This document shows, in pieces, positions 15,875 through 61,867 of a stretch of DNA of 64,000 nucleotides. The DNA comes from a virus. Taxonomy: Duplodnaviria > Caudoviricetes. The stretch covers positions 17,098 to 81,097 of the IMG/VR virus record IMGVR_UViG_2884411467_000001; one strand, 5' to 3'. The number at the start of each line of letters is the position of its first letter. The stretch's first letter is position 1. A model generated the notes under the pieces. The model saw only the letters and a list, made by a program, of their open reading frames with translations. It was not told where the DNA came from and did no database searches. A program made the translations under genes and the position numbers.

Positions 15875-16064
15875 GCGAGCCAGCGCTACGCTGTTCGCCG
15901 AATTCCTCCAGGATCTTCTGAACGCCCATGTTGATGAGCTCGCGCTTCAGCTCTCCCCACGTACGTCCGGCCAACACGGCAGCTTTCTTGCCGCGCCCGC
16001 GCTCGATGTCATTGAGAGCGACCTTCTCGTCTTGGCGCCGAAGCTGGGGATCGAGGTACGTCAT
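15864..16064 (-). CDS. Small regulator at the CII position
   Basis: 66 aa gene directly after cro. Confidence 0.55.
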   Translation of the reverse strand: MTYLDPQLRRQDEKVALNDIERGRGKKAAVLAGRTWGELKRELINMGVQKILEEFGEQRSAGSHEG

Positions 16065-16104
16065 AGTCAGGTCCTTTGAACTGCGAGTTGGTCTGTGGTC
16101 ACGG

Positions 16105-16314
16105 TCAAGCGGCCTGATTGGGCTGCTTGTCGTTGTTGGCGGGCGGCTGGCGACCTACAAGCTGCAAGATGCGAAACCCGGTGTCGTAGCTCACGGAAAG
16201 AACCCCGTTCCGGATGCGATTGATCGTCGAGCGGTTAACGCCAACGGCCTGGGCGATTTGATGCTCGTTCCAGTGGGCATCGATGAGGGCTTGCACAGCG
16301 GCTTTAGGAGTCAT
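16105..16314 (-). CDS. cro: Cro-like repressor
   Basis: HTH NEHQIAQAVGVNRSTINRIRNG; divergent from cI. Confidence 0.85.
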   Translation of the reverse strand: MTPKAAVQALIDAHWNEHQIAQAVGVNRSTINRIRNGVLSVSYDTGFRILQLVGRQPPANNDKQPNQAA

Positions 16315-16327
16315 GGGCCATGAGCAT

Positions 16328-16343
16328 TGTGCGTTTACGCACA
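16328..16343. promoter_or_regulatory. Right operator (OR) palindrome TGTGCGTTTACGCACA
   Basis: 16-bp near-palindrome between cro and cI; an identical copy is at 19414. Confidence 0.85.
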
Positions 16344-16391
16344 AATGTCAATGCTTTTGCGCAATCAACTGCGCAGACGCAATGTCCGAAC

Positions 16392-17084
16392 ATGGAGGGC
16401 ATGAGCTACCTCCAGCAGAACCTCAAATGGCTGTTTGAAACGAAGAAGACCAACGGCTACCAAGTGGCCCAGAAGACGGGCGTGGTCGCGAGCACGATCA
16501 ATCGCATCGTGAATAGCAAGTTCAACGACGCGCGAGACAGCACGATTCGGCCAATCGCGGAACACTTCGGCCTTTCAGTCAATGACTTGAAGAATGTGGA
16601 CCTGCAGGCCCAGGAGAAGCTTCTGGCCGTGGGTGAGGCCGTGGGTAAGCTGTCAGTGGACGCGTGCCTGATCACGGCGGTTCCCGAATTTTTCCCGGAG
16701 GATGCTCCGCTCATGAACCTGCTGGCACCTCAGGACACGATCGCCCTATCGAAACCTGCGCTCGCGGCTATCACGACCGCCCCGCCATCTGATGTGCGTT
16801 TCGCGATTGCCCTGGACGATGCCATGCGCGGCGAGATTGAAAAAGGTGAGCTGGTTCTCATTGATACCCGTGTTCGGACCGTTACGGTCGACGGCATCTA
16901 TGCTTTTACTTACTTCAAGCGACCGCACATTAAGCGAGGCGGTCACGAGGGAGCATCAGGTGGTTTGATGTTCACCGGAACCAATCCAAGGGTGAACAAT
17001 ATCCCCGTGGAGACCGAGGAAGAGATGAAAGGACTCAACATCATCGGCCAAGTCATTGCCTCCTTCACCAGGCGGCGTTACTGA
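16392..17084 (+). CDS. cI: CI-like repressor (XRE HTH plus S24 peptidase domain)
   Basis: HTH GYQVAQKTGVVASTINRI; C-terminal DAMRGEIEKGELVLID...DGIYAF...IKR. Confidence 0.88.
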   Translation: MEGMSYLQQNLKWLFETKKTNGYQVAQKTGVVASTINRIVNSKFNDARDSTIRPIAEHFGLSVNDLKNVDLQAQEKLLAVGEAVGKLSVDACLITAVPEFFPEDAPLMNLLAPQDTIALSKPALAAITTAPPSDVRFAIALDDAMRGEIEKGELVLIDTRVRTVTVDGIYAFTYFKRPHIKRGGHEGASGGLMFTGTNPRVNNIPVETEEEMKGLNIIGQVIASFTRRRY

Positions 17085-17119
17085 GTCGATTGCCTGCGGC
17101 CTTCAGGGGGAGGGACAAG

Positions 17120-18778
17120 GTGGTATATCTAGCAAAGTGGGCCAGGAACTATTGGGTCCAAGGGACTGCCTTTGCCGTCCTGTATGGATTGACCTTCTAC
17201 CATTTGAAGGATGCCTCGCCAGCTACTCTTAACTTGCCTGTCGGCATGCGACTAGCGCTTTTCCTTGCCCTTCCACCGCGTTGGTGGCCTTGGCTTGTCG
17301 CCGGAGACATCGGAGCAAACGGGTACTGGAACATCACCGTTGCCGTGAAGCATCACTTTCCTGCCCTTTGGGCGGCGGTGGGTACGTCAATGCCGGTGCT
17401 CGCAGGCCTGATCCCTGCACACTTCAACAGGAAGTTTGGCGGCCCATACGATTTTGATAAGCCCCGCGACGCGATGCGCTTCCTTACCACCGCAGCCGGC
17501 AGCTCGCTCCTCACCGCGCTGGTATGCATCCTTGGCATTCTGGCCGCATCCATCGGCCGCCCCACGGGCATGACCTATGCCGACCCGGCCTTGGCGTCCC
17601 AGTTCACGATTTATCTCACTGGAGCATTAGCTTCCACTGTGCTCCTGCCGCCACTGGTGCATGTCGTTCGGGAGTTCTTTCCTAAAGGCAAGCGTGCTCT
17701 CACGGACAAGGACCTGATCCTTATCGGCGGGTTTGCCGCCTATGTGCTGGTGGGAACGCTCTTCCTACAATCGGTCCCAATCGGCATGCTCACGCTTGTC
17801 CGATGTGCTCTCTATGCGCCCCTGATCCTCATGACGCGCATCATGGGTTGGCGTGGCGCCACCATCATGGGGCTCGTTTGTGCAATAGCTCTTCAGGCGA
17901 CGCAACGCGTTGACGTGGAAGGGCCATTTATCTCGGTGCAGGATATCGCCACTGCCTGCGCGGTCACCATGTTCATCTTCGGGTCCGTTATCTCCGAACA
18001 ACGCAAGCAGGTGATAGCTGCCAAGGCGCAAAGCGAGCAGTCGCAGAGCGACGTGCGTCAGATGCGTGGCCTTGTTAAGCGCCACGCAACTCGTTCCGAA
18101 GCGCTCTTTCGGCACAGCGCGGGAATCATGGAAGATCTCGTGCGCGGCGCTCAGCAGGCGGAACGACAGATGCAGGACACGCCCGATCGTGGGGAGCGCG
18201 CCCTCATCCAGTGGGAGGCGATGAAGGGAATTCGCGAACGAATGCGCTCACTGAGTGAGATCTTCCATCCAGAATTGCTCGAGCAGGCAGGGCTCAGAGC
18301 AACTATCTCGTCCGGGCCGCTGTACCAGATACTCAGCGCCTGCGGGATTGCGTTTGACGACGATCTACGTGCGCGTCCGGGCCTACTCTCGCAAGAAGTC
18401 CAAATGTCGCTGTACCGCCTTTCTTACGAAGGGGCGTGCGTCATGCTTCGCGATAAGACACCGGAGAGGATGGTGGTGTCACTTCGGATCGGCAGAATTG
18501 CTAGGGGGCCGCGCTACGCGATCCTGCGCTTGAAAGGCGTTGTTTCGAGCCCTGAGGGATGGCGTGCCCCGACCAGTGTTGTGACCACAGGTTTCAGCCT
18601 GGATGGTATGGGCTTGGTGGCGGAAAGCTTCCAGGGTCGCGTCAAATACAGCAGGGACGCGCACCGCATGACCATCCTCTTGTTCGACGGTGCAACTCAG
18701 GCGATCACTGAGACCGTAAAGGCCCTACCGTTCTCAATGAACCAAGGCCACCCCTCGGTTACCGACGCCGCGGGCTAA
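17120..18778 (+). CDS. MASE1 membrane sensor with a degenerate UhpB-like kinase C-terminus
   Basis: LNLPVGMRLALFLALPPRWWPWLVAGD (MASE1) and about 9 TM segments. FHPELLEQAGL and LYRLSYEG resemble HisKA_3/HATPase segments but lack the ELHD, N-box and G-box motifs. GTG start at 17120 with RBS. Confidence 0.8.
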   Translation: MVYLAKWARNYWVQGTAFAVLYGLTFYHLKDASPATLNLPVGMRLALFLALPPRWWPWLVAGDIGANGYWNITVAVKHHFPALWAAVGTSMPVLAGLIPAHFNRKFGGPYDFDKPRDAMRFLTTAAGSSLLTALVCILGILAASIGRPTGMTYADPALASQFTIYLTGALASTVLLPPLVHVVREFFPKGKRALTDKDLILIGGFAAYVLVGTLFLQSVPIGMLTLVRCALYAPLILMTRIMGWRGATIMGLVCAIALQATQRVDVEGPFISVQDIATACAVTMFIFGSVISEQRKQVIAAKAQSEQSQSDVRQMRGLVKRHATRSEALFRHSAGIMEDLVRGAQQAERQMQDTPDRGERALIQWEAMKGIRERMRSLSEIFHPELLEQAGLRATISSGPLYQILSACGIAFDDDLRARPGLLSQEVQMSLYRLSYEGACVMLRDKTPERMVVSLRIGRIARGPRYAILRLKGVVSSPEGWRAPTSVVTTGFSLDGMGLVAESFQGRVKYSRDAHRMTILLFDGATQAITETVKALPFSMNQGHPSVTDAAG

Positions 18779-18790
18779 ACCCGCGGCGTC
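18764..18790. terminator. Perfect 11-bp hairpin at the convergent gene junction
   Basis: GACGCCGCGGG-CTAAA-CCCGCGGCGTC. Confidence 0.7.
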
Positions 18791-18800
18791 GTGGGACGCT

Positions 18801-19259
18801 TTAATTGATCTTCGTGCAGTCGGTGACACTGGTGCAGTCCGCCGCCGCGACAGGTCTCGCGCTGGGCGATGCCACAAGCCCTCTTGTTGGCGATGCAGTA
18901 ACCGTGGTGCCGCTGTCTGAGTACACGGTCACGCCGTCAGCCGGTGCCGAATCAGTGACCGCCTGCAATTGACCGGCGCCCAGCGGCAGCGCGAGCGAAC
19001 TCGTCCCATCAGGCGACGCCGCCACGCCGCCGCGCACAGTTCCGTTCACGTCGTTCACCTGGATGAATTTCAGGCCATTGACGGCGAACACGTAGACATG
19101 GAACTGCGGATTCGCGCTTACGTCCTGGGCGTTTGGCCACGATTGGCCCAAGCCGCTGGCCGGCGCAGTCTGGGCTACTGCAACGCCCAAACCACCCATC
19201 AGCAAGCACAGCCCCATCGCCAAGGCCACAACGGCCCACTTTAATCTGCTCCGGTCCAT
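18801..19259 (-). CDS. Secreted protein with signal peptide and C-terminal Cys-x5-Cys tail
   Basis: MDRSRLKWAVVALAMGLCLLMGGLGVAVA signal peptide; GLGQSWPNAQDVS..FHVYVF..IQVND core; ends AADCTSVTDCTKIN. Confidence 0.8.
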   Translation of the reverse strand: MDRSRLKWAVVALAMGLCLLMGGLGVAVAQTAPASGLGQSWPNAQDVSANPQFHVYVFAVNGLKFIQVNDVNGTVRGGVAASPDGTSSLALPLGAGQLQAVTDSAPADGVTVYSDSGTTVTASPTRGLVASPSARPVAAADCTSVTDCTKIN

Positions 19260-19377
19260 CCCCTGCTCTCCTTCAGTCTGTTGGCCTTTCGGCGATTCTT
19301 GCGCCGCCAACTCAAGCACTGAACCTGATCAAAAACATGAACGCCCACTGAATGCCGCGCACATTTCAGTGCGGATG

Positions 19378-19429
19378 TGTGCGTTTTCGCACGCACCCCT
19401 ATTGCAAATAGTATGTGCGTTTACGCACA
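19378..19429. promoter_or_regulatory. Left operator (OL) sites and pL region
   Basis: TGTGCGTTTTCGCACG at 19378 and TGTGCGTTTACGCACA at 19414, upstream of the early operon. Confidence 0.82.
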
Positions 19430-19459
19430 ATTGATTGCACTTCACGAGGGGCCTATGCG

Positions 19460-19699
19460 ATGAGCGCCGTCTACCCAGCCGAACTATTCGTCCTGCGCCG
19501 TCAGGTCCGAAACGTCTCACTCGCTCCAGCCAGCGTCACCAGGACAGCCGAACGCATCGCCCTTCGCGCCCGCGCCATCGGCATCTCCACCTTCCGTGCC
19601 CGCGAGGGCGCCCTGAACTACCTAGCCTCCCTGTCGTATCTGGGCGGTATGTACGTCCTCGGCGCCAGCGGCACTGACAAGCCGAAGGGTACGGCATGA
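19460..19699 (+). CDS. First pL gene, hypothetical
   Basis: GAGG RBS; coupled to the next ORF. Confidence 0.55.
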   Translation: MSAVYPAELFVLRRQVRNVSLAPASVTRTAERIALRARAIGISTFRAREGALNYLASLSYLGGMYVLGASGTDKPKGTA

Positions 19700-19962
19700 C
19701 CACCGAGCCGAGTTTCCGCGCCCGGTGGGTCAATGAGGCGAGCTCCACCACCAAAATCCCGTCAGACGTCGCTCCCATCACCGTCCACGGATCAGGTGTT
19801 GAAGACGCGATCACCAAGATCTCAATCAACATCGGGTCCGCTTGCATAGGCATCGATGACGCAACGGCCGAGCTCATTGCCGAAGCACTCGTTTATGCAG
19901 TGAAAAAGCGGCGCGACGCGTTCGCCCAGAGAGCCGCGGCGCAGCGGGAGCAGTCCGCATGA
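19696..19962 (+). CDS. Hypothetical phage protein
   Basis: ATGA-coupled chain of early genes. Confidence 0.55.
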   Translation: MTTEPSFRARWVNEASSTTKIPSDVAPITVHGSGVEDAITKISINIGSACIGIDDATAELIAEALVYAVKKRRDAFAQRAAAQREQSA

Positions 19963-21814: not shown

Positions 21815-22378
21815 GTGACTGCACCGACGATTATCTTCCAGAAGGCCTTCATCAAAATCAACAAGGCCCCTGACATCAATGGCATTGCCAGCCTGCTGGA
21901 GCCGCTGACGCTGTCATCTATCACCAGCCAGGTGGATGGCTTTCTCAACCCAGATCCGAATCGCTTCGAGCTCGATGCATCCAGCGGAATCATCTACGAC
22001 CCGCTCACTGGGTTGATGTGGGGTGACGAGACGGACGAGCTGACGCCGGACGAAGCTATGGAAGCATGCAAGGCATCGCGCCAGGGTGGCCATTCCGACT
22101 GGACGAAAGCGGGCCTACGCCCGTGGCTCACCATTGTGGATTACACGCGCAACAACCCCGTGTTGCCACCGCCGTTCAAGACCCATGGCGACTCCGTTTG
22201 GACGGCTGACGAAACTCCTTGGAGCAAGAAGGAGAAGCGTACGGGTTCTTCCCGCTCCTTCTTCTACGTCGGCATGTGCTACGGCAACGTCAACTACTAC
22301 CTCGCCGGCTACCGGCGGCGTGCGCGGCCGGTGCGGCGCGCGGCGCCGGCCAGTCAGTGCTTGGTCATTGGCCAGTAA
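21815..22378 (+). CDS. DGR target protein, DUF1566 (Lcl C-terminal, C-type-lectin-like) domain
   Basis: IYDPLTGLMW, A.EAC...GHSDW and VWTADETPW motifs; the 3' end is the variable repeat. Confidence 0.88.
   Translation: MTAPTIIFQKAFIKINKAPDINGIASLLEPLTLSSITSQVDGFLNPDPNRFELDASSGIIYDPLTGLMWGDETDELTPDEAMEACKASRQGGHSDWTKAGLRPWLTIVDYTRNNPVLPPPFKTHGDSVWTADETPWSKKEKRTGSSRSFFYVGMCYGNVNYYLAGYRRRARPVRRAAPASQCLVIGQ
22242..22354 (+). repeat. DGR variable repeat (VR)
   Basis: 113 bp matching 22877-22989 with 13 mismatches, 12 of them at TR adenines. Confidence 0.97.
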
Positions 22379-22387
22379 CAGCCTGAC

Positions 22388-22822
22388 ATGACCTTCCACC
22401 TTCCTCCCGCCGTGCGGCTCGCAGAAACCCTTGCTCGCGACATCGAGCAAGCGGTCTCGAAGTTTCACCGCGCGCACCGCTACACGTTCGGCGCTGATCT
22501 TCGCGCCGATATGTGGGCCGTGCTCACGACCGCGAACCGTGCGGCGAGGAAGCCTTCGGAGCGGGCCGCGTTGCTCACCAGGCTGGTTGATCAGGTGGAT
22601 GACCTCAAGCAGCGCCTGCGCCTCGGCCAGTCGCTGCGTCAGTTCAACAGCTTCGGTCAGTTCGAAGCGCTCATGCGCTCGGCGATAAACCTCGGCCAGC
22701 AGATAGGCGGCTGGCACCGTCAGCACCACCCCAAAGGCCAGGATGGCCGGTCGCACGCGGCCGGACAGCGTGCCATGACACTGAGTACCCGTGACACCTC
22801 GATGGTTGAGGTCAATCAATGA
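22388..22822 (+). CDS. avd: DGR accessory variability determinant (four-helix bundle)
   Basis: FHRAHRYTFGADLR and LGQQIGGW motifs; lies between target and RT. Confidence 0.9.
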   Translation: MTFHLPPAVRLAETLARDIEQAVSKFHRAHRYTFGADLRADMWAVLTTANRAARKPSERAALLTRLVDQVDDLKQRLRLGQSLRQFNSFGQFEALMRSAINLGQQIGGWHRQHHPKGQDGRSHAAGQRAMTLSTRDTSMVEVNQ

Positions 22823-24171
22823 CGAAGCTTCGCTACCCACAGGGATGTGCAGCCAGGTCGCAAGTGCACGGGGACGCGGGTTCTTCCCGCTCCTTCTTCT
22901 ACGTCAACATGAACAACGGCAACGTCAACAACAACAACGCCAACAACCGGCTGCGTGCGCGGCCGGTGCGGCGCGCGGCGCCGGCCAGTGAGTGTCAGGG
23001 TGGGGTTACTGTTCGCCAATTGCACGATGCGATGTGCGCGGCTCGACGCCGGAAGAAACCCAGTGCGAACCAGCTCGCGTTCGAACTGGCCTGGATGGAT
23101 CGCCTCATCGCCATTGAGGCGGACATCAATGCTGGCCGATGGTCTCCAGCACCCGCAACATGCTTCGTCGCAACGCGCCCGAAGGCCCGTGAGATCCATG
23201 CGCCTGATTTCGGCGACCGCGTGGTTCACCACTGGCTCGTGCCTCAGCTGGAAGCCATCTACGAGCCGACGTTCATCCACGACAGCTATGCCAATCGAAA
23301 GCGCAAAGGCTCTCACGCGGCCGTTCTTCGGCTCAGGCAGTTCGTTCGCCAGACCGTCAGCGGTGAAGGCGGCGGCTGGTACCTGCAGCTCGACGTGCAT
23401 AACTTTTTCAACAGCATCCACCGACCCACCCTGTGGCTGATGTTGAAGGACCGCCTCACGCGCGCCAACCTCGATGCTGCAGCTTTGCGCGTGGTTCATG
23501 CACTCCTTCGTCATCCTGTTGAGCGCCAAGGCGTGCACCACCGAGCCACGGCCGCACAGCGCGCCATGGTTCCGGCTCACAAGCGGTTGGAGAATGCGGC
23601 GCCTGGATGCGGTTTACCAATCGGCAACCTCTCGTCTCAGTTCTTCGCCAATGTCTATCTAGACGCGCTCGATCAGTTCGTGAAGCACACGCTGAAGGCG
23701 AGGCGCTATGCCCGATATGTCGATGACTTCGTGCTAGTCCACCGTGATCGCGCCGTCCTGGAACAGTGGCAGCACGACATCGAGACTTTTCTTGGCCGGG
23801 AACTGGGCCTGAAGCTGAAGGCTGACATTCGGCTACGCCCTCTGTCAGCCGGCATCGATTTCCTGGGTTATGTCGTCTATCCAACCCACACGCGAGTTCG
23901 GGCTCGTGTGCTCCAGCACATGACGCAGAACCTCGCTGCTTGGGCCCAAGCACACAGCGTGAGGCACGGGTTCGCTGCGACACCCGCCGATATCCGCTCT
24001 GCCGGTTCGATTCTCGCGAGCTTTGACGGCCATCTGCGCCACGCGAATGCGGCGCGTGTGCGGCTCCAAATCTTGAGCCGCTTTCCCTGGGCCAGTCGAA
24101 TTCCGACGAAGGCCTCCTTTGCCCCAGCGCTAGAGGGAACGACCGTTCTCCTCCGGCATTCACACTCCTAA
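22819..24171 (+). CDS. DGR reverse transcriptase
   Basis: APDFGDRVVHH, LDVHNFFNSI, GLPIGNLSSQFFANVYL, RYVDDF and GIDFLGY motifs. Confidence 0.97.
   Translation: MTKLRYPQGCAARSQVHGDAGSSRSFFYVNMNNGNVNNNNANNRLRARPVRRAAPASECQGGVTVRQLHDAMCAARRRKKPSANQLAFELAWMDRLIAIEADINAGRWSPAPATCFVATRPKAREIHAPDFGDRVVHHWLVPQLEAIYEPTFIHDSYANRKRKGSHAAVLRLRQFVRQTVSGEGGGWYLQLDVHNFFNSIHRPTLWLMLKDRLTRANLDAAALRVVHALLRHPVERQGVHHRATAAQRAMVPAHKRLENAAPGCGLPIGNLSSQFFANVYLDALDQFVKHTLKARRYARYVDDFVLVHRDRAVLEQWQHDIETFLGRELGLKLKADIRLRPLSAGIDFLGYVVYPTHTRVRARVLQHMTQNLAAWAQAHSVRHGFAATPADIRSAGSILASFDGHLRHANAARVRLQILSRFPWASRIPTKASFAPALEGTTVLLRHSHS
22877..22989 (+). repeat. DGR template repeat (TR), in frame within the 5' end of the RT ORF
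   Basis: Contains 10 AAC codons and pairs with the VR. Confidence 0.97.
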
Positions 24172-29788: not shown

Positions 29789-29994
29789 TGCTCCGACACG
29801 TGACCATCAGCAAGTTTGCCAAGGAATCGGGCTACACCGAGAACGCCATCCGCATGAAGATCAAGAACGGCGTATGGTTGGAAGGTGTCGTCTGGATGAG
29901 GTCACCCGATGGAAGGGTGTTAATCGACACAGAGGGATATGAGACATGGGTAGCCGGTCAGCAGGTGTCCGCGCTGCAACGCAGCGCAGCGTAG
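29788..29994 (+). CDS. xis: Excisionase
   Basis: VTISKFAKESGYTENAIRMKIKNGVW..PDGRVLI; overlaps int. Confidence 0.85.
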   Translation: MLRHVTISKFAKESGYTENAIRMKIKNGVWLEGVVWMRSPDGRVLIDTEGYETWVAGQQVSALQRSAA

Positions 29995-31112
29995 AGATCG
30001 ATTTTTATTACCGCGGTGCCAGGTGTCGCGAACGTCTCAAGCTGCCGCCGACTGCCGCCAACCTGAAGTTCGCGGCCAACTTGAAGGCCCAGATCGAGGC
30101 TGAGATCGCTCGGGGCGCTTTCGATTACGCGAGGTTCTTCCCCGACAGCAAGCGCGCCAGGACGCTCAGCAAGCTCCCAGGCGCAGCGCTGACCATCGAG
30201 AAGGGACTGGAGACTTGGCTCAAGGGGATGAAGAGCCAGATCGAGCACACGACCTACCGCGACTATGACCTTGCCATCCAGCGAGTATGGGTTCCGGCGT
30301 TCGGCGCCAAGCGGCTGACAGAGCTGACGCGCGGCGAGCTGAAAGAATGGGTGTCAGAACAGACCTGCGGGCTGAAGCGCATCCGCAACCTGCTGCTCCC
30401 CATGCGCGGCATGTTCGCCCAAGCGGTGGAGGATGAGCAGATCACGGCCAATCCGTTCGTCGGCTGGACACCGCGAAAGATCGAGCCGCCCAAAGAGTCG
30501 GACGATGTCGACCCGTTTACGCCGGCCGAGGTGGCGGCAATCCTGGAAGCCAGTGAGGGCCAGGTCCGCAACCTGTTTGAGTTCGGATTCTGGACCGGCC
30601 TGCGCACCAGCGAGCTGATCGCCCTGCGCTGGGAAGATGTCGACCTGGTCAATGGAATGGTCAGCGTGCGGCGGGCAAAGGTGCGCAAGAAGGTCAAGGC
30701 GCCCAAGACCAAGGCGGGACGGAGGACGGTTCAACTCCTGGTTCCGGCATTGAACGCCATTCAGGCGCAGCGCGCGCATTCTCAGCTCCGCGGCGAAGAG
30801 GTGTTCCTGAATCCGCGCACTGGCGAGCCATGGCTTCATGACGGGCCAATCCGCAAAACGGCATGGCACCCAGCCCTCAAACGCGCGGGCGTGCGATACC
30901 GATACCCCTACCAGATGCGCCACACCTTTGCCTCGACGCTGCTCAGCGCTGGCGAGAATCCCGTCTGGGTGGCGACCATGATGGGGCACAAGGATTGGGC
31001 CATGATCATCAAGGTCTATGGACGGTGGATTCCTTCGATCGCTCCTGACGCCGGACAGAAGGTGGCGGCACTTTGGTCAACATCTGGTCAGCCCACCGCC
31101 GCTAAGCGTTGA
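29946..31112 (+). CDS. int: Prophage tyrosine integrase (N-terminal arm-binding domain)
   Basis: TGLRTSEL, YQMRHTFAS and MGH...Y catalytic motifs. Confidence 0.95.
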   Translation: MGSRSAGVRAATQRSVEIDFYYRGARCRERLKLPPTAANLKFAANLKAQIEAEIARGAFDYARFFPDSKRARTLSKLPGAALTIEKGLETWLKGMKSQIEHTTYRDYDLAIQRVWVPAFGAKRLTELTRGELKEWVSEQTCGLKRIRNLLLPMRGMFAQAVEDEQITANPFVGWTPRKIEPPKESDDVDPFTPAEVAAILEASEGQVRNLFEFGFWTGLRTSELIALRWEDVDLVNGMVSVRRAKVRKKVKAPKTKAGRRTVQLLVPALNAIQAQRAHSQLRGEEVFLNPRTGEPWLHDGPIRKTAWHPALKRAGVRYRYPYQMRHTFASTLLSAGENPVWVATMMGHKDWAMIIKVYGRWIPSIAPDAGQKVAALWSTSGQPTAAKR

Positions 31113-31357: not shown

Positions 31358-32620
31358 ATGCCGCGCATCGCCAAGCCCCTCACGGACTCCCAAGTCAAAG
31401 CCGCCAAGCCAGGCACCGGCAAAACGCCTCGGCGCCTCTTTGACGGTGGTGGCCTCTACTTGGAGATATCGCCGGCCGGCGCGAAATACTGGCGCCTCAA
31501 ATACCTGCTCAACGGCAAAGAGTGCCGCATGGGCCTGGGTACCTATCCGCCGGTGACGCTCGGCGAGGCGCGCACGGCAGCCGCCGATGCCCGCGCGTTG
31601 ATTGCCAAAGGCACCAGCCCGGTGCAGCAGCGCAAGGCGGACCAGATCGCCGCTGCCACAGCTGCCGCAGACACCTTTGAGGTTGTCGCCCGCGAATGGC
31701 ACGAAAAGATGTCCGCCACGTGGAAGCCGGCACAGGCCAAAACGGTCATGGGTCGACTGGAGCACGACCTCATCCCCTACATCGGCCGCGTGCCGGTGGC
31801 GGAGATCGGCAAGGCGCACGCGCTTGACGTGATCCGCCGGATCGCCGCGCGCGGGAAGTCGGAAACGGAACGCCGAGTGCTGAGTAACCTGCTCCAGATC
31901 TTGGCGCACGCATCCAAAACGCTGCGGATTGAGCGCGTACCCTTCGCGTCTGTCGACATCGCCATATCGCCGGTGAAAAAAACCAGCCATGCCGCGCTCA
32001 CGTCGCCGGACGAAGTCGCCGCCCTCCTCCGCTCCATCCACGCCTACCAGGGGTCCGCCATCACGCGCTACGCGCTACAGCTGGCCATGCTTACGGCAGT
32101 GCGTCCTGGTGAATTGCGCCACGCGGAATGGGTGGAAATTGACCTCGACGGCGCGCGCTGGGATATCCCTGGCGCCAAGATGAAAGGCGGCACCGATCAC
32201 TTGGTGCCGCTGTCTAGCCAGGCCGTGGCCGTCTTGCGCGCCGCGCGTGAGATTACGGGCGGCGGCCGTTACGTGTTCCCGAGTGCGCGCACGCCGGACG
32301 GCTCGCGCGCCATGTCCGATAACGCCGTGCTGGCAGCGCTCCGCCGCATGGACTACAGCAGCGACCAGATGAGCGGGCACGGTGTCCGTGCCATTTTCCG
32401 CACGCTCGGCGATGAAGTGCTGGGAATGCGCGTGGAATGGCTGGAGATGCAACTCGCGCACGCGGTGAAGGATGTGCACGGCACAGCCTACAACCGCACC
32501 AAGTTTCTGCAGGAGCGCAGGGCCATGATGCAGACATGGGCGGACTATCTCGACTCGCTGCGCACTGGCACACCGATGCCGGCGGCGGAGAACGCCCACC
32601 AGCTCCGGCACAGCGCGTAG
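31358..32620 (+). CDS. int: P4-type tyrosine integrase
   Basis: LTDSQVKAAKP, DGGGLYLEI..GAKYWRLKY, TAVRPGELR, HGVR and QLAH motifs. Confidence 0.95.
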   Translation: MPRIAKPLTDSQVKAAKPGTGKTPRRLFDGGGLYLEISPAGAKYWRLKYLLNGKECRMGLGTYPPVTLGEARTAAADARALIAKGTSPVQQRKADQIAAATAAADTFEVVAREWHEKMSATWKPAQAKTVMGRLEHDLIPYIGRVPVAEIGKAHALDVIRRIAARGKSETERRVLSNLLQILAHASKTLRIERVPFASVDIAISPVKKTSHAALTSPDEVAALLRSIHAYQGSAITRYALQLAMLTAVRPGELRHAEWVEIDLDGARWDIPGAKMKGGTDHLVPLSSQAVAVLRAAREITGGGRYVFPSARTPDGSRAMSDNAVLAALRRMDYSSDQMSGHGVRAIFRTLGDEVLGMRVEWLEMQLAHAVKDVHGTAYNRTKFLQERRAMMQTWADYLDSLRTGTPMPAAENAHQLRHSA

Positions 32621-43703: not shown

Positions 43704-44108
43704 CTAACCGCTGGAGGCGCGGAGCTTCGCTATCTGGGTCTCAAGGTCCGCGATCATGAATGGCTTGCTAAGTTTTGCCGTGTCCGGGGGCAAGTGAGCC
43801 AGCGATCCGCTGTCATGACCGGTGACAACGACCATCATCATTTCCGGACGAAGCTGTCTAACTGCGGCGGGCAGTGCAGCTCCGCCCATTGCTCCAGGCA
43901 TGCGGACGTCGGTGAGTATCAGGTCAAAGCGTTGATCAGACGACAAGACATTTAGCGCCGCCTCCGCACCGTTAACGGCGAAAGTTGCGAAACCGAGATA
44001 CTCCAACATGTCGCAGAAGGCTGTCATTACCTCTTCGTCATCATAGACAACCAACGCTGTAAGTCGCTGTCCAGGCGACCCACCAACTACATCCCCCGGC
44101 GTGTTCAT
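43704..44108 (-). CDS. Single-domain response regulator (receiver only)
   Basis: VVYDD, LILTDVRMPG, VVTG and SKPF motifs. Confidence 0.85.
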   Translation of the reverse strand: MNTPGDVVGGSPGQRLTALVVYDDEEVMTAFCDMLEYLGFATFAVNGAEAALNVLSSDQRFDLILTDVRMPGAMGGAALPAAVRQLRPEMMMVVVTGHDSGSLAHLPPDTAKLSKPFMIADLETQIAKLRASSG

Positions 44109-44392
44109 TTGCGGACCTCGAAGATCGTTACTACACCCTAGACACCGTTCGTCAGCGCGTAGATAAATTCCCACAGGCATGAAGCCGAAACAGGCACCAG
44201 CTATCAACTTAGGCACTCAATTTCACGACCAGAACCGTGAGCTGGTGATGAAAAATCATACGGCATTAGTGCCTAAGATGAAGCTTGGTTTAGCTCTGAT
44301 TTCTAAATCAATTCATCCTGGCATCGGCACGCACGACTTGGCGTCAAGCGATGTGCTGATGGGTCTTGGCCCTGACGCCGCCAACTTGGCGC

Positions 44393-60379: not shown

Positions 60380-61867
60380 ATGCCGAAACCTCTTCTGATG
60401 AACCGGAAAAGCGGACTTTACGTCCGTTTTTTTGTGCCCGTCGATTTGCAAGCACGAGTCGGTTCAAAATATTTGGTCCGAAGCCTTCAAGGTGTCCGAG
60501 CTGACGCAGCCCGATTGATGGCCGCTGCCCTGGGCTATGCTCTATCCAAAGCATTTGAACGACTGAGGATGGACCCGATGTCCGACCCGGATGACCTGCT
60601 AGACAAAGCAAAAGCAGGACTAGCGACCGGGAAGGTGTATGACATCGAGTTTCCGAATGGGCTCAAAATTCATACGAATGGGACCGATGCGGAACACCAG
60701 CGGGTACGAGAAACCATCGCAGATCTCACCCAAGCAGGTGCGTTCTCCTCTGCCCCTCCGATTGCACCTACTCATCCCAAAGCCGGATTGCTGTCCGAGC
60801 GTATCGAGAAATTCTTAGCTCAAATGAAGGGGCAGGAACGAAGTGAAACCAATCACTTCGATACTGCTTTCACTTTGAAGGTGTTCCTCGGACTGGTGGG
60901 CGATAAAGACTTGAGTGAAGTGTCACCAACGGACATGGACACCTTCATGGACGCGTTGGCCCATTGGCCCGCCAACGCCAGCAAGAAACCACAGTACAAA
61001 GGTCTGACGCCCAAGCAGGTGGTCGCCAAGGCCAAGGGTAACTCCGATAAAAAACTGGCACCACGCACCAAAGAAAAGCACCTCGACCGGTTGAGAGTGT
61101 TTTTGAAAAACTGCATGGACCGAAGGTTGATTGCCTACAATCCATGTGATGGGCTTCGCGTCACGGGCAAAGCTCAAGATGAAGAACAGACCAAGCAACC
61201 TTTCAACGAAAAGGACTTGAAGGCTCTGTTCGACCCAAGCCATATCACGCCCATCATGCCCCACAAGCATTGGATTCCAATTCTTGGCTTATACACGGGC
61301 GCCAGGCTCAACGAACTGGCCCAACTGCATGTCGAAGACATCGAGTGCATTGATGGAGTCTTCGGCATGCACATCAGACGCAAGGTCAAAAATCCAAGCT
61401 CAAGGCGCTTTGTGCCGCTTCGGCAAGAATTGCTCGACCTCGGGTTCATCGACTACATCGAGAGCGCCAAACAGGCCAAGTTTGAGCACGTATTCCCAGG
61501 CCTTCCTCAAGATGGCAACGGCCCCGGCGACCCTGTGGGAGATTGGTTCAACCGAACCAATCTCAGGAAAACATGTGGCATCAACGACCCGTCCAAGTCG
61601 TTTCATAGCTTCCGCCACACCTTTGCAAGCCTAGCCGAACGGTCAGGATTATCCGACCAACGCATAGCAAGGTTGACTGGTCATAGTTCGGGAAGCTCCG
61701 TTCTTCGACGGCACTACATCCAAGCATCGACCTTACAAGAACGCTTCGAGGACATCGGAAAAATTCGCTTTCCTGAGCTTTCCATCAAGGCGTTAAAAAA
61801 AGGGTTTTTCGAACCCTACTTCAAGCGGTTACGAGCGGTAGAAGCAAGAAAAGAGAGAGTCATCTGA
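60380..61867 (+). CDS. int: Tyrosine integrase with an N-terminal DUF6538-like domain
   Basis: GLYVRFFVPVDLQARVG..LVRSL, TGARLNEL, FHSFRHTF and LTGH..Y motifs. Confidence 0.9.
   Translation: MPKPLLMNRKSGLYVRFFVPVDLQARVGSKYLVRSLQGVRADAARLMAAALGYALSKAFERLRMDPMSDPDDLLDKAKAGLATGKVYDIEFPNGLKIHTNGTDAEHQRVRETIADLTQAGAFSSAPPIAPTHPKAGLLSERIEKFLAQMKGQERSETNHFDTAFTLKVFLGLVGDKDLSEVSPTDMDTFMDALAHWPANASKKPQYKGLTPKQVVAKAKGNSDKKLAPRTKEKHLDRLRVFLKNCMDRRLIAYNPCDGLRVTGKAQDEEQTKQPFNEKDLKALFDPSHITPIMPHKHWIPILGLYTGARLNELAQLHVEDIECIDGVFGMHIRRKVKNPSSRRFVPLRQELLDLGFIDYIESAKQAKFEHVFPGLPQDGNGPGDPVGDWFNRTNLRKTCGINDPSKSFHSFRHTFASLAERSGLSDQRIARLTGHSSGSSVLRRHYIQASTLQERFEDIGKIRFPELSIKALKKGFFEPYFKRLRAVEARKERVI

Follow-up and report, generated by a model that had tools for sequence, protein, structure and literature searches.

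Several described systems combine elements that recur at the locus considered here. The cI-proximal slot of a prophage often holds exclusion genes, lambda rexAB being an example. In arbitrium (AimP/AimR) and Rap-Phr of Bacillus, an exported partner acts with a receptor, the pair occurs as many paralogs, and copies on phages and conjugative elements lie beside master regulators. Agr pairs the ring-constrained, group-specific AgrD peptide with AgrC, a many-helix sensor without a large external domain, and in YfiR–YfiN and CpxP–CpxA a small periplasmic protein (disulfide-dependent in YfiR) controls an inner-membrane signalling protein. UhpB, a MASE1-containing kinase, gets its signal through the partner protein UhpC. 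To our knowledge, the inputs of the widespread MASE1 sensor domain are known in few cases, and in those cases the input comes through a partner protein. DgcE with RdcA/RdcB is a reported precedent for such an input (PMC6510439). Here, we analyse a two-gene module in IMG/VR virus record IMGVR_UViG_2884411467_000001 (Caudoviricetes), of which positions 17,098 to 81,097, a stretch of 64,000 nucleotides, form the window and carry the coordinates used below. The module consists of a gene for a MASE1 membrane protein and a convergent gene for a small exported protein, referred to as the partner, and it lies in the immunity region of a lambda-like prophage.

A strictly linked gene pair beside cI

The MASE1 gene and the exported-protein gene are one strictly linked module that diversifies as a unit. 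A search made with the partner profile only gave 287 positive stretches in species-representative genomes, 80 of which were kept and combined with 11 viral contigs into a set of 91 loci. A MASE1-family open reading frame (ORF) is convergent with the partner gene and within ~200 bp of it at 89 of these loci, lies 2 kb away at one and is absent from one. The convergent adjacent pair was present in every context looked up, whether chromosome, conjugative element or prophage, and the adjacency persists at protein identities down to ~20–40%. The original prediction, made from the window's letters, had taken the two genes for a functional pair and had named their co-occurrence in other genomes beforehand as the test that could refute this; the pair came through that test at 89 of 91 loci. 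The same count contradicts the notion of unrelated neighbours, that is, an orphan degenerate sensor next to an independent secreted moron, across chromosomes, conjugative elements and phages alike. Opposite strands, separate promoters and a hairpin between the genes would fit such a chance arrangement, to which we nevertheless assign next to no probability. Partial correlations of partner distances with those of the membrane half (0.33) and the kinase-like half (0.22) of the MASE1 protein are too close to each other to interpret.

The element that carries the module in the window is a lambda-like prophage, with a gpA terminase and a lambda-type portal at its left and an integrase at 29946–31112. 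Its immunity region is delimited by a palindromic 16-mer operator, TGTGCGTTTACGCACA, with one exact copy at 16328–16343 (OR, the right operator), inside the cro–cI intergenic region, and a second with the same letters at 19414–19429 (OL, the left operator), as had been claimed for these two positions. A further OL copy with two mismatches, TGTGCGTTTTCGCACG, lies at 19378–19393. Operator matches with up to three mismatches numbered five, against 0.62 expected from shuffled sequence, and none of 100 shuffles reached five. On one side of OR, a cro-like helix-turn-helix (HTH) regulator (16105–16314, reverse strand; Pfam HTH_23/HTH_3, PHROG transcriptional regulators) is divergent from cI; on the other, cI itself (16392–17084, forward strand) encodes a CI-type repressor with HTH and S24 peptidase domains, matched by Pfam and by PHROG families phrog_4 and phrog_6201 (transcriptional repressor/CI-like repressor).

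The MASE1 gene begins with GTG 35 bp past the cI stop and encodes 552 amino acids on the forward strand (17120–18778), its product being identical to database entry P0001; the gene coordinates thus agree with the earlier placement of a MASE1 gene 35 bp after cI, between OR and OL. The partner gene, identified as an ORF and by family alignment and an AlphaFold2 (AF2) model, runs towards it on the reverse strand (18801–19259). Between the two, a 13-bp G+C-rich hairpin (18762–18792; folding energy −29.9/−29.7 kcal/mol, z −3.3/−4.1) holds the MASE1 stop codon in its loop and is a probable two-way terminator or insulator. The partner start is 119–170 bp from the OL copies, both of which lie upstream of the early-left operon; the first ORF of this operon (19460–19699, forward strand) is divergent from the partner gene and has no family match. 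A sigma-70 promoter scan of 15900–19700 found no site, a scan that is uninformative for a G+C-rich host. Judging from spacing, orientation and the hairpin, the MASE1 gene would most likely be co-transcribed with cI in the lysogen, and the partner gene would probably be read from its own promoter beside OL.

This arrangement resembles lambda rexAB in that an accessory module, presumably lysogen-expressed, directly follows cI between OR and OL. It differs from rexAB in that neither product resembles RexA, RexB or any PHROG or PADLOC family, and in that one of the two genes is convergent and its product exported. As a separate observation, the CI of the window has DDAM (near 16812–16823), whereas the repressors of five related prophages show DDSM with the catalytic Ser of S24 peptidases; the downstream Lys motif is retained. 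The window CI may lack self-cleavage, in which case induction of the prophage might take another route or be lost.

A kinase-derived candidate receptor and its exported partner

The MASE1 protein can be compared with UhpB of Escherichia coli, which likewise has a MASE1 domain followed by a HisKA_3-type core and is the best named NCBIfam match (NF008649), at 38 bits against a cut-off of 408, so that the window protein is not a member of that equivalog. Pfam recognizes MASE1 (PF05231) at 47.5 bits against a cut-off of 29.8 over residues 26–305 of a 562-residue reading of the gene, which correspond to residues 16–295 of the GTG-started protein (17165–18004). An exhaustive homologue search gave 178 representative receptor clusters at 50% identity, nearly all of 500–560 amino acids and aligning from end to end; among 62 family representatives, 56 match MASE1 in Pfam, seven match HisKA_3 and six match HATPase_c. 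The C-terminal half of the window protein has no match to HisKA_3 or HATPase_c even at E 10, Pfam returns only sub-threshold chance rows for the C-terminal halves of three relatives, and a single-sequence search of the C-terminal 250 residues against PDB sequences gave no match. A family profile searched against solved structures places DesK first (E 0.0035). The AF2 model has a predicted local distance difference test (pLDDT) of 90.4, and all of its top Foldseek matches are kinase cores, with DesKC first (E 5.4e-4, probability 1.0). The kinase homology of this half is therefore visible only through the family profile and the fold, not through single-sequence search.

Alignment with intact relatives, which have the ELHD box, the N-box and DDGxG all present, confirms the earlier description of a UhpB-like C-terminus without phosphoacceptor, N-box Asn or DxGxG. 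In the window protein and in most of the family, the phospho-acceptor His column of the ELHD box is a one-residue gap, the N-box Asn column holds Val, and the segment of the G1 box DxGxG is replaced. Residues ~296–535 (18005–18724) retain, in the AF2 model and by Foldseek, the helical hairpin for dimerization and histidine phosphotransfer (DHp) and the Bergerat-fold ATPase core of HisKA_3-type kinases, the latter degenerate; the phospho-His, N-box Asn and G1 box that also define such kinases are gone. The likeness to DesK and the other HisKA_3 kinase cores of solved structure is thus one of fold, and the difference lies in the lost catalytic and phospho-acceptor motifs. The C-terminal half keeps a predicted DesK/UhpB-type fold but, given this motif loss, is unable to autophosphorylate, as expected of a pseudo-kinase, and output of the receptor would therefore pass by protein–protein contact and not by phosphotransfer. 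In two intact relatives, NarL-type regulators are encoded close by and an exported partner is absent. The family thus shows a kinase lineage that gave up phosphotransfer and its regulator on acquiring the exported partner. Unlike UhpB, the window protein also has no UhpA- or NarL-type regulator in its prophage: no cognate NarL/GerE-type response regulator is encoded within the lambda-like prophage. The prediction that the prophage has no response regulator therefore stands; the window does hold a single ORF with a REC domain (43704–44216, 170 amino acids), on the far side of the prophage integrase. When variability was compared segment by segment along the MASE1 domain, the putative periplasmic loops revealed no clear excess.

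The partner departs further from the UhpB/UhpC arrangement, being a small, Sec-exported soluble protein or peptide and not a transporter-like membrane protein. A hydrophobic helix stands at the N-terminus of its 152 residues, together with an A-V-A|Q motif whose predicted cleavage falls at A29|Q30 (signal peptide, residues 1–29, 19173–19259); an all-beta domain follows. The C-terminus reads DCTSVTDCTKIN and contains the loop CTSVTDC, from Cys142 to Cys148 (18816–18836), within the residues D-C-T-S-V-T-D-C-T-K-I-N. The predicted size, signal peptide and cysteine pair were thus all borne out; the claim that CTSVTDC ends the protein was not, as the end falls four residues past the second Cys. The beta domain is confidently modelled (pLDDT 82), and Cys142 and Cys148 sit on a less confident tail. 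More than 120 homologues were found, the majority of them from Dyella, Luteibacter, Frateuria and Rhodanobacter. Near the N-terminus all have the motif GLGxxWPNAxDVS...HVYVF...QVND without variation, and the Cys pair is likewise unchanged across 36 aligned family members. The partner family has no match in Pfam, NCBIfam, PHROG or PADLOC. Its fold has no convincing match either (Foldseek against PDB, best E 0.054; VIA wide, best Z 5.5 over 58 residues; BFVD, best E 0.018), and an ESM Atlas search returned only unnamed clusters of the partner's own family. In the literature, we found no paper connecting MASE1 with prophage immunity regions, with pseudo-kinases or with any of these genera.

Paralogs, minimal forms and mobile copies

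The pairing occurs hundreds of times among soil bacteria. Most members of the module are not phage genes; they are chromosomal syntenic paralogs in Rhodanobacteraceae. Five Dyella genomes have 2–7 partner genes and 5–9 MASE1-family genes each, and each paralog clade keeps its own syntenic chromosomal place, which in many species is flanked by housekeeping genes, recC being one. The loop has the form C-x(2-8)-C and is specific to the clade (e.g. CTNPANC, CPSGC, CNTYNC, CKNPVEC, CTGDPLEC), and in none of the 18 genomes with at least two sampled modules does a loop repeat within the genome. Reduced forms exist on both sides of the pair. Minimal partners of 66–71 amino acids consist of a signal peptide, a Ser/Thr-rich linker, C-x(2-4)-C and GGGR, without a beta domain, and such a precursor would give an exported peptide of ~40 residues. 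They form five clusters, and all four viewed in context (L103, L105 and the contigs of P0274 and P0277) abut a convergent MASE1-family gene of 549–550 amino acids, which in L123 is called as two pieces. A Luteibacter clade has MASE1-only receptors of ~300 amino acids. The minimal partners and MASE1-only receptors therefore point to a retained core of a MASE1 domain and a short exported Cys-loop peptide. The minimal partners, in which only the Cys loop is kept, also favour the proposal of an active Cys tail. At five loci in different Dyella genomes (L104, L107, L109, L111, L112), the same short translated motifs appear downstream of partner-less MASE1 genes; their repetition at the partner position suggests a dispersed repeat of the repetitive extragenic palindrome or miniature inverted-repeat transposable element (REP/MITE) kind.

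Strict pairing, in which receptor-only forms are common and a partner without receptor is rare (1 of 91), together with variable loops and many paralogs, would also suit a toxin with its immunity protein, where a bacteriocin-like exported protein or peptide attacks the inner membrane from its outer face and the MASE1 protein provides immunity in the membrane. The convergent layout recalls pore-forming colicin and immunity genes, and the C-terminal disulfide loop recalls class IIa microcins. Some neighbourhoods add to this. A copy on a Ralstonia solanacearum megaplasmid (L120, CP071915.1, 1562820–1572960) lies beside an ATP-binding cassette (ABC) exporter with a C39 peptidase, an RTX-type lysine acyltransferase, unnamed ORFs and an Imm8 gene, and another Burkholderiales module (L009:8539-11990) lies beside HlyD and C39-ABC genes; the C39-exporter neighbourhood of these copies may indicate a link to exported toxins or peptides. 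Set against a toxin, the partner has a Sec signal and not a double-glycine leader, with no outer-membrane route, receptor-binding or translocation domain evident, and the sequence and position of each paralog are kept across many species, unlike strain-variable bacteriocin loci. We also know of no precedent for an immunity protein that is a sensor of at least eight helices with a conserved kinase-like domain. On balance, a toxin–immunity pair seems to us distinctly improbable.

Copies on phages form a lineage of their own. A cI-like gene precedes the MASE1 gene in 11 modules, including that of the window, and in the tree a branch with support 99 separates these from 85 chromosomal copies. The cI-adjacent modules make up two deep clades, a Dyella group that includes the window and a distant group of viral contigs, and the cI-to-MASE1 gap is 35–42 bp in the window and in those five Dyella relatives for which genes were called. 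Among 50,697 isolated-phage-genome records, the MASE1 protein has no homologue. The window cassette would thus be an accessory module that passes down within a phage lineage and, to judge from the gene layout, is expressed in the lysogen. In the Dyella group, the loop is CTSV[T/A/P]DC, with one varying position whose T, A or P tracks deep MASE1 branches. The related Dyella prophages have repressors 46–47% identical to the window CI and operator-like palindromes that differ from those of the window; no 11-mers are shared between operators of the window and its relatives, and shorter palindromes of the ATGC-N6-GCAT type flank the module on both sides in the relatives. A loop that is nearly invariant across phages of different immunity would argue against phage-specific dialects of the kind seen in arbitrium. 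In the distant group, one cI-adjacent viral contig (L100:5121-6318) has two tandem partner copies ahead of a single MASE1 gene, and in the partners of this clade, CC or CGC directly follows the point where the signal peptide is predicted to be cut, in place of a C-terminal loop.

The retention of the slot directly after cI, between OR and OL, in two deep phage clades is what superinfection exclusion would predict, or more broadly an anti-phage or envelope defence in which the membrane and periplasmic proteins keep other phages from entering or abort their infection. Both products act at the envelope, and the Burkholderiales copies are cargo of conjugative elements, where they stand beside a TraI_2 relaxase and, in one case, AbiE and, in another, type I restriction genes. 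Yet searches of the module in Pfam, PADLOC and PHROG gave no match to a described exclusion or defence family, MASE1 being the sole Pfam match. Most copies are stable syntenic chromosomal paralogs, unlike patchy island-borne defence genes, and a simple block to entry would leave the 2–9 differently tuned copies per genome and the kinase-derived cytoplasmic domain unexplained. We therefore regard exclusion or defence as unlikely, if still deserving of attention.

A proposed ligand and receptor, and further features of the window

The reading we favour, and to which we would give about an even chance, is that the partner is a cognate exported ligand (or co-sensor) of a MASE1 receptor whose output runs through protein contacts and which is expressed in the lysogen. 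The partner would be exported by Sec, and its terminal Cys pair would close a short disulfide loop. It is this paralog-specific loop that the MASE1 membrane domain would recognize on the side facing the periplasm, with the conserved beta domain, where present, serving as a carrier or a second binding surface, and the kinase-like domain would signal on by protein–protein contact without phosphotransfer. Comparable designs are those of Agr and the periplasmic regulators. As in Agr, the module would couple a constrained, group-specific peptide to a polytopic membrane sensor (both putative roles), and it differs from Agr in a disulfide instead of a thiolactone, in having no AgrB-like maturase, in its pseudo-kinase output and in the lack of any homology. 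From YfiR–YfiN and CpxP–CpxA it is set apart by the absence of homology or fold match, the convergent layout and the paralog-specific loop.

Several observations weigh against a ligand–receptor pair. MASE1 would expose short periplasmic loops only, with little for a folded 12-kDa ligand to hold. The loop is not universal, as the distant viral-contig group (L099–L102) has no C-terminal loop and the mature protein of three of its four members starts with a CC or CGC pair instead. About one-third of the MASE1-family genes in the five genomes are without a recognizable partner. Clustering of neighbours within 3.5 kb yielded no third gene conserved across paralog clades, only clade-specific synteny reaching at most 17 loci. 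Finally, although partner and receptor diverge in step (correlation of their pairwise distances, r = 0.79, 85 pairs), linkage alone would lead one to expect this.

A bolder version casts the module as a Gram-negative counterpart of Rap-Phr and arbitrium, in which disulfide-loop ligands and MASE1 receptors would give cells several private channels. Copies captured by temperate phages, next to cI, and by conjugative elements, next to the relaxase, would then report on kin or on the state of the envelope and bias lysogeny maintenance, induction or transfer. The likeness consists of an exported partner with a receptor, many paralogs per genome and copies on phages and conjugative elements. The differences are that the receptor is a membrane MASE1 protein and not a cytoplasmic AimR-type protein with tetratricopeptide repeat and HTH domains, that the host is Gram-negative, that the partner is a ~40-residue disulfide peptide or a folded 12-kDa protein (in the window phage a confidently modelled beta domain and not an obvious propeptide), and that the loop of the phage clade is nearly invariant. 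The tie of the module to the lysis–lysogeny decision is one of position only, and we consider this version quite doubtful.

If the ligand–receptor reading holds, the family would provide a large set of gene-encoded candidate inputs for MASE1, counting 178 receptor clusters and no fewer than 287 loci among species-representative genomes, and the paralog-specific loops and minimal forms would make specificity swaps straightforward. For phages, a cI-adjacent, lysogen-expressed cassette in two deep prophage clades would represent either a new input to lysogeny or a new envelope function.

The window holds further mobile features outside the module. The early-left operon contains a complete diversity-generating retroelement (21815–24171), composed of a target gene for a protein with an Lcl_C/DUF1566 domain (21815–22378), a small ORF (22388–22822) and a reverse transcriptase gene (22819–24171). 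Its variable repeat (VR, 22242–22359) and template repeat (TR, 22877–22994) are 88% identical, and almost every mismatch between them lies at a TR adenine within an AAC codon. A second integrase, of the P4 type (Arm-DNA-bind_3, Phage_int_M; 31358–32620), directly follows the prophage integrase, and a different island therefore begins at ~31.3 kb. A third integrase-family ORF is located at 60380–61867.

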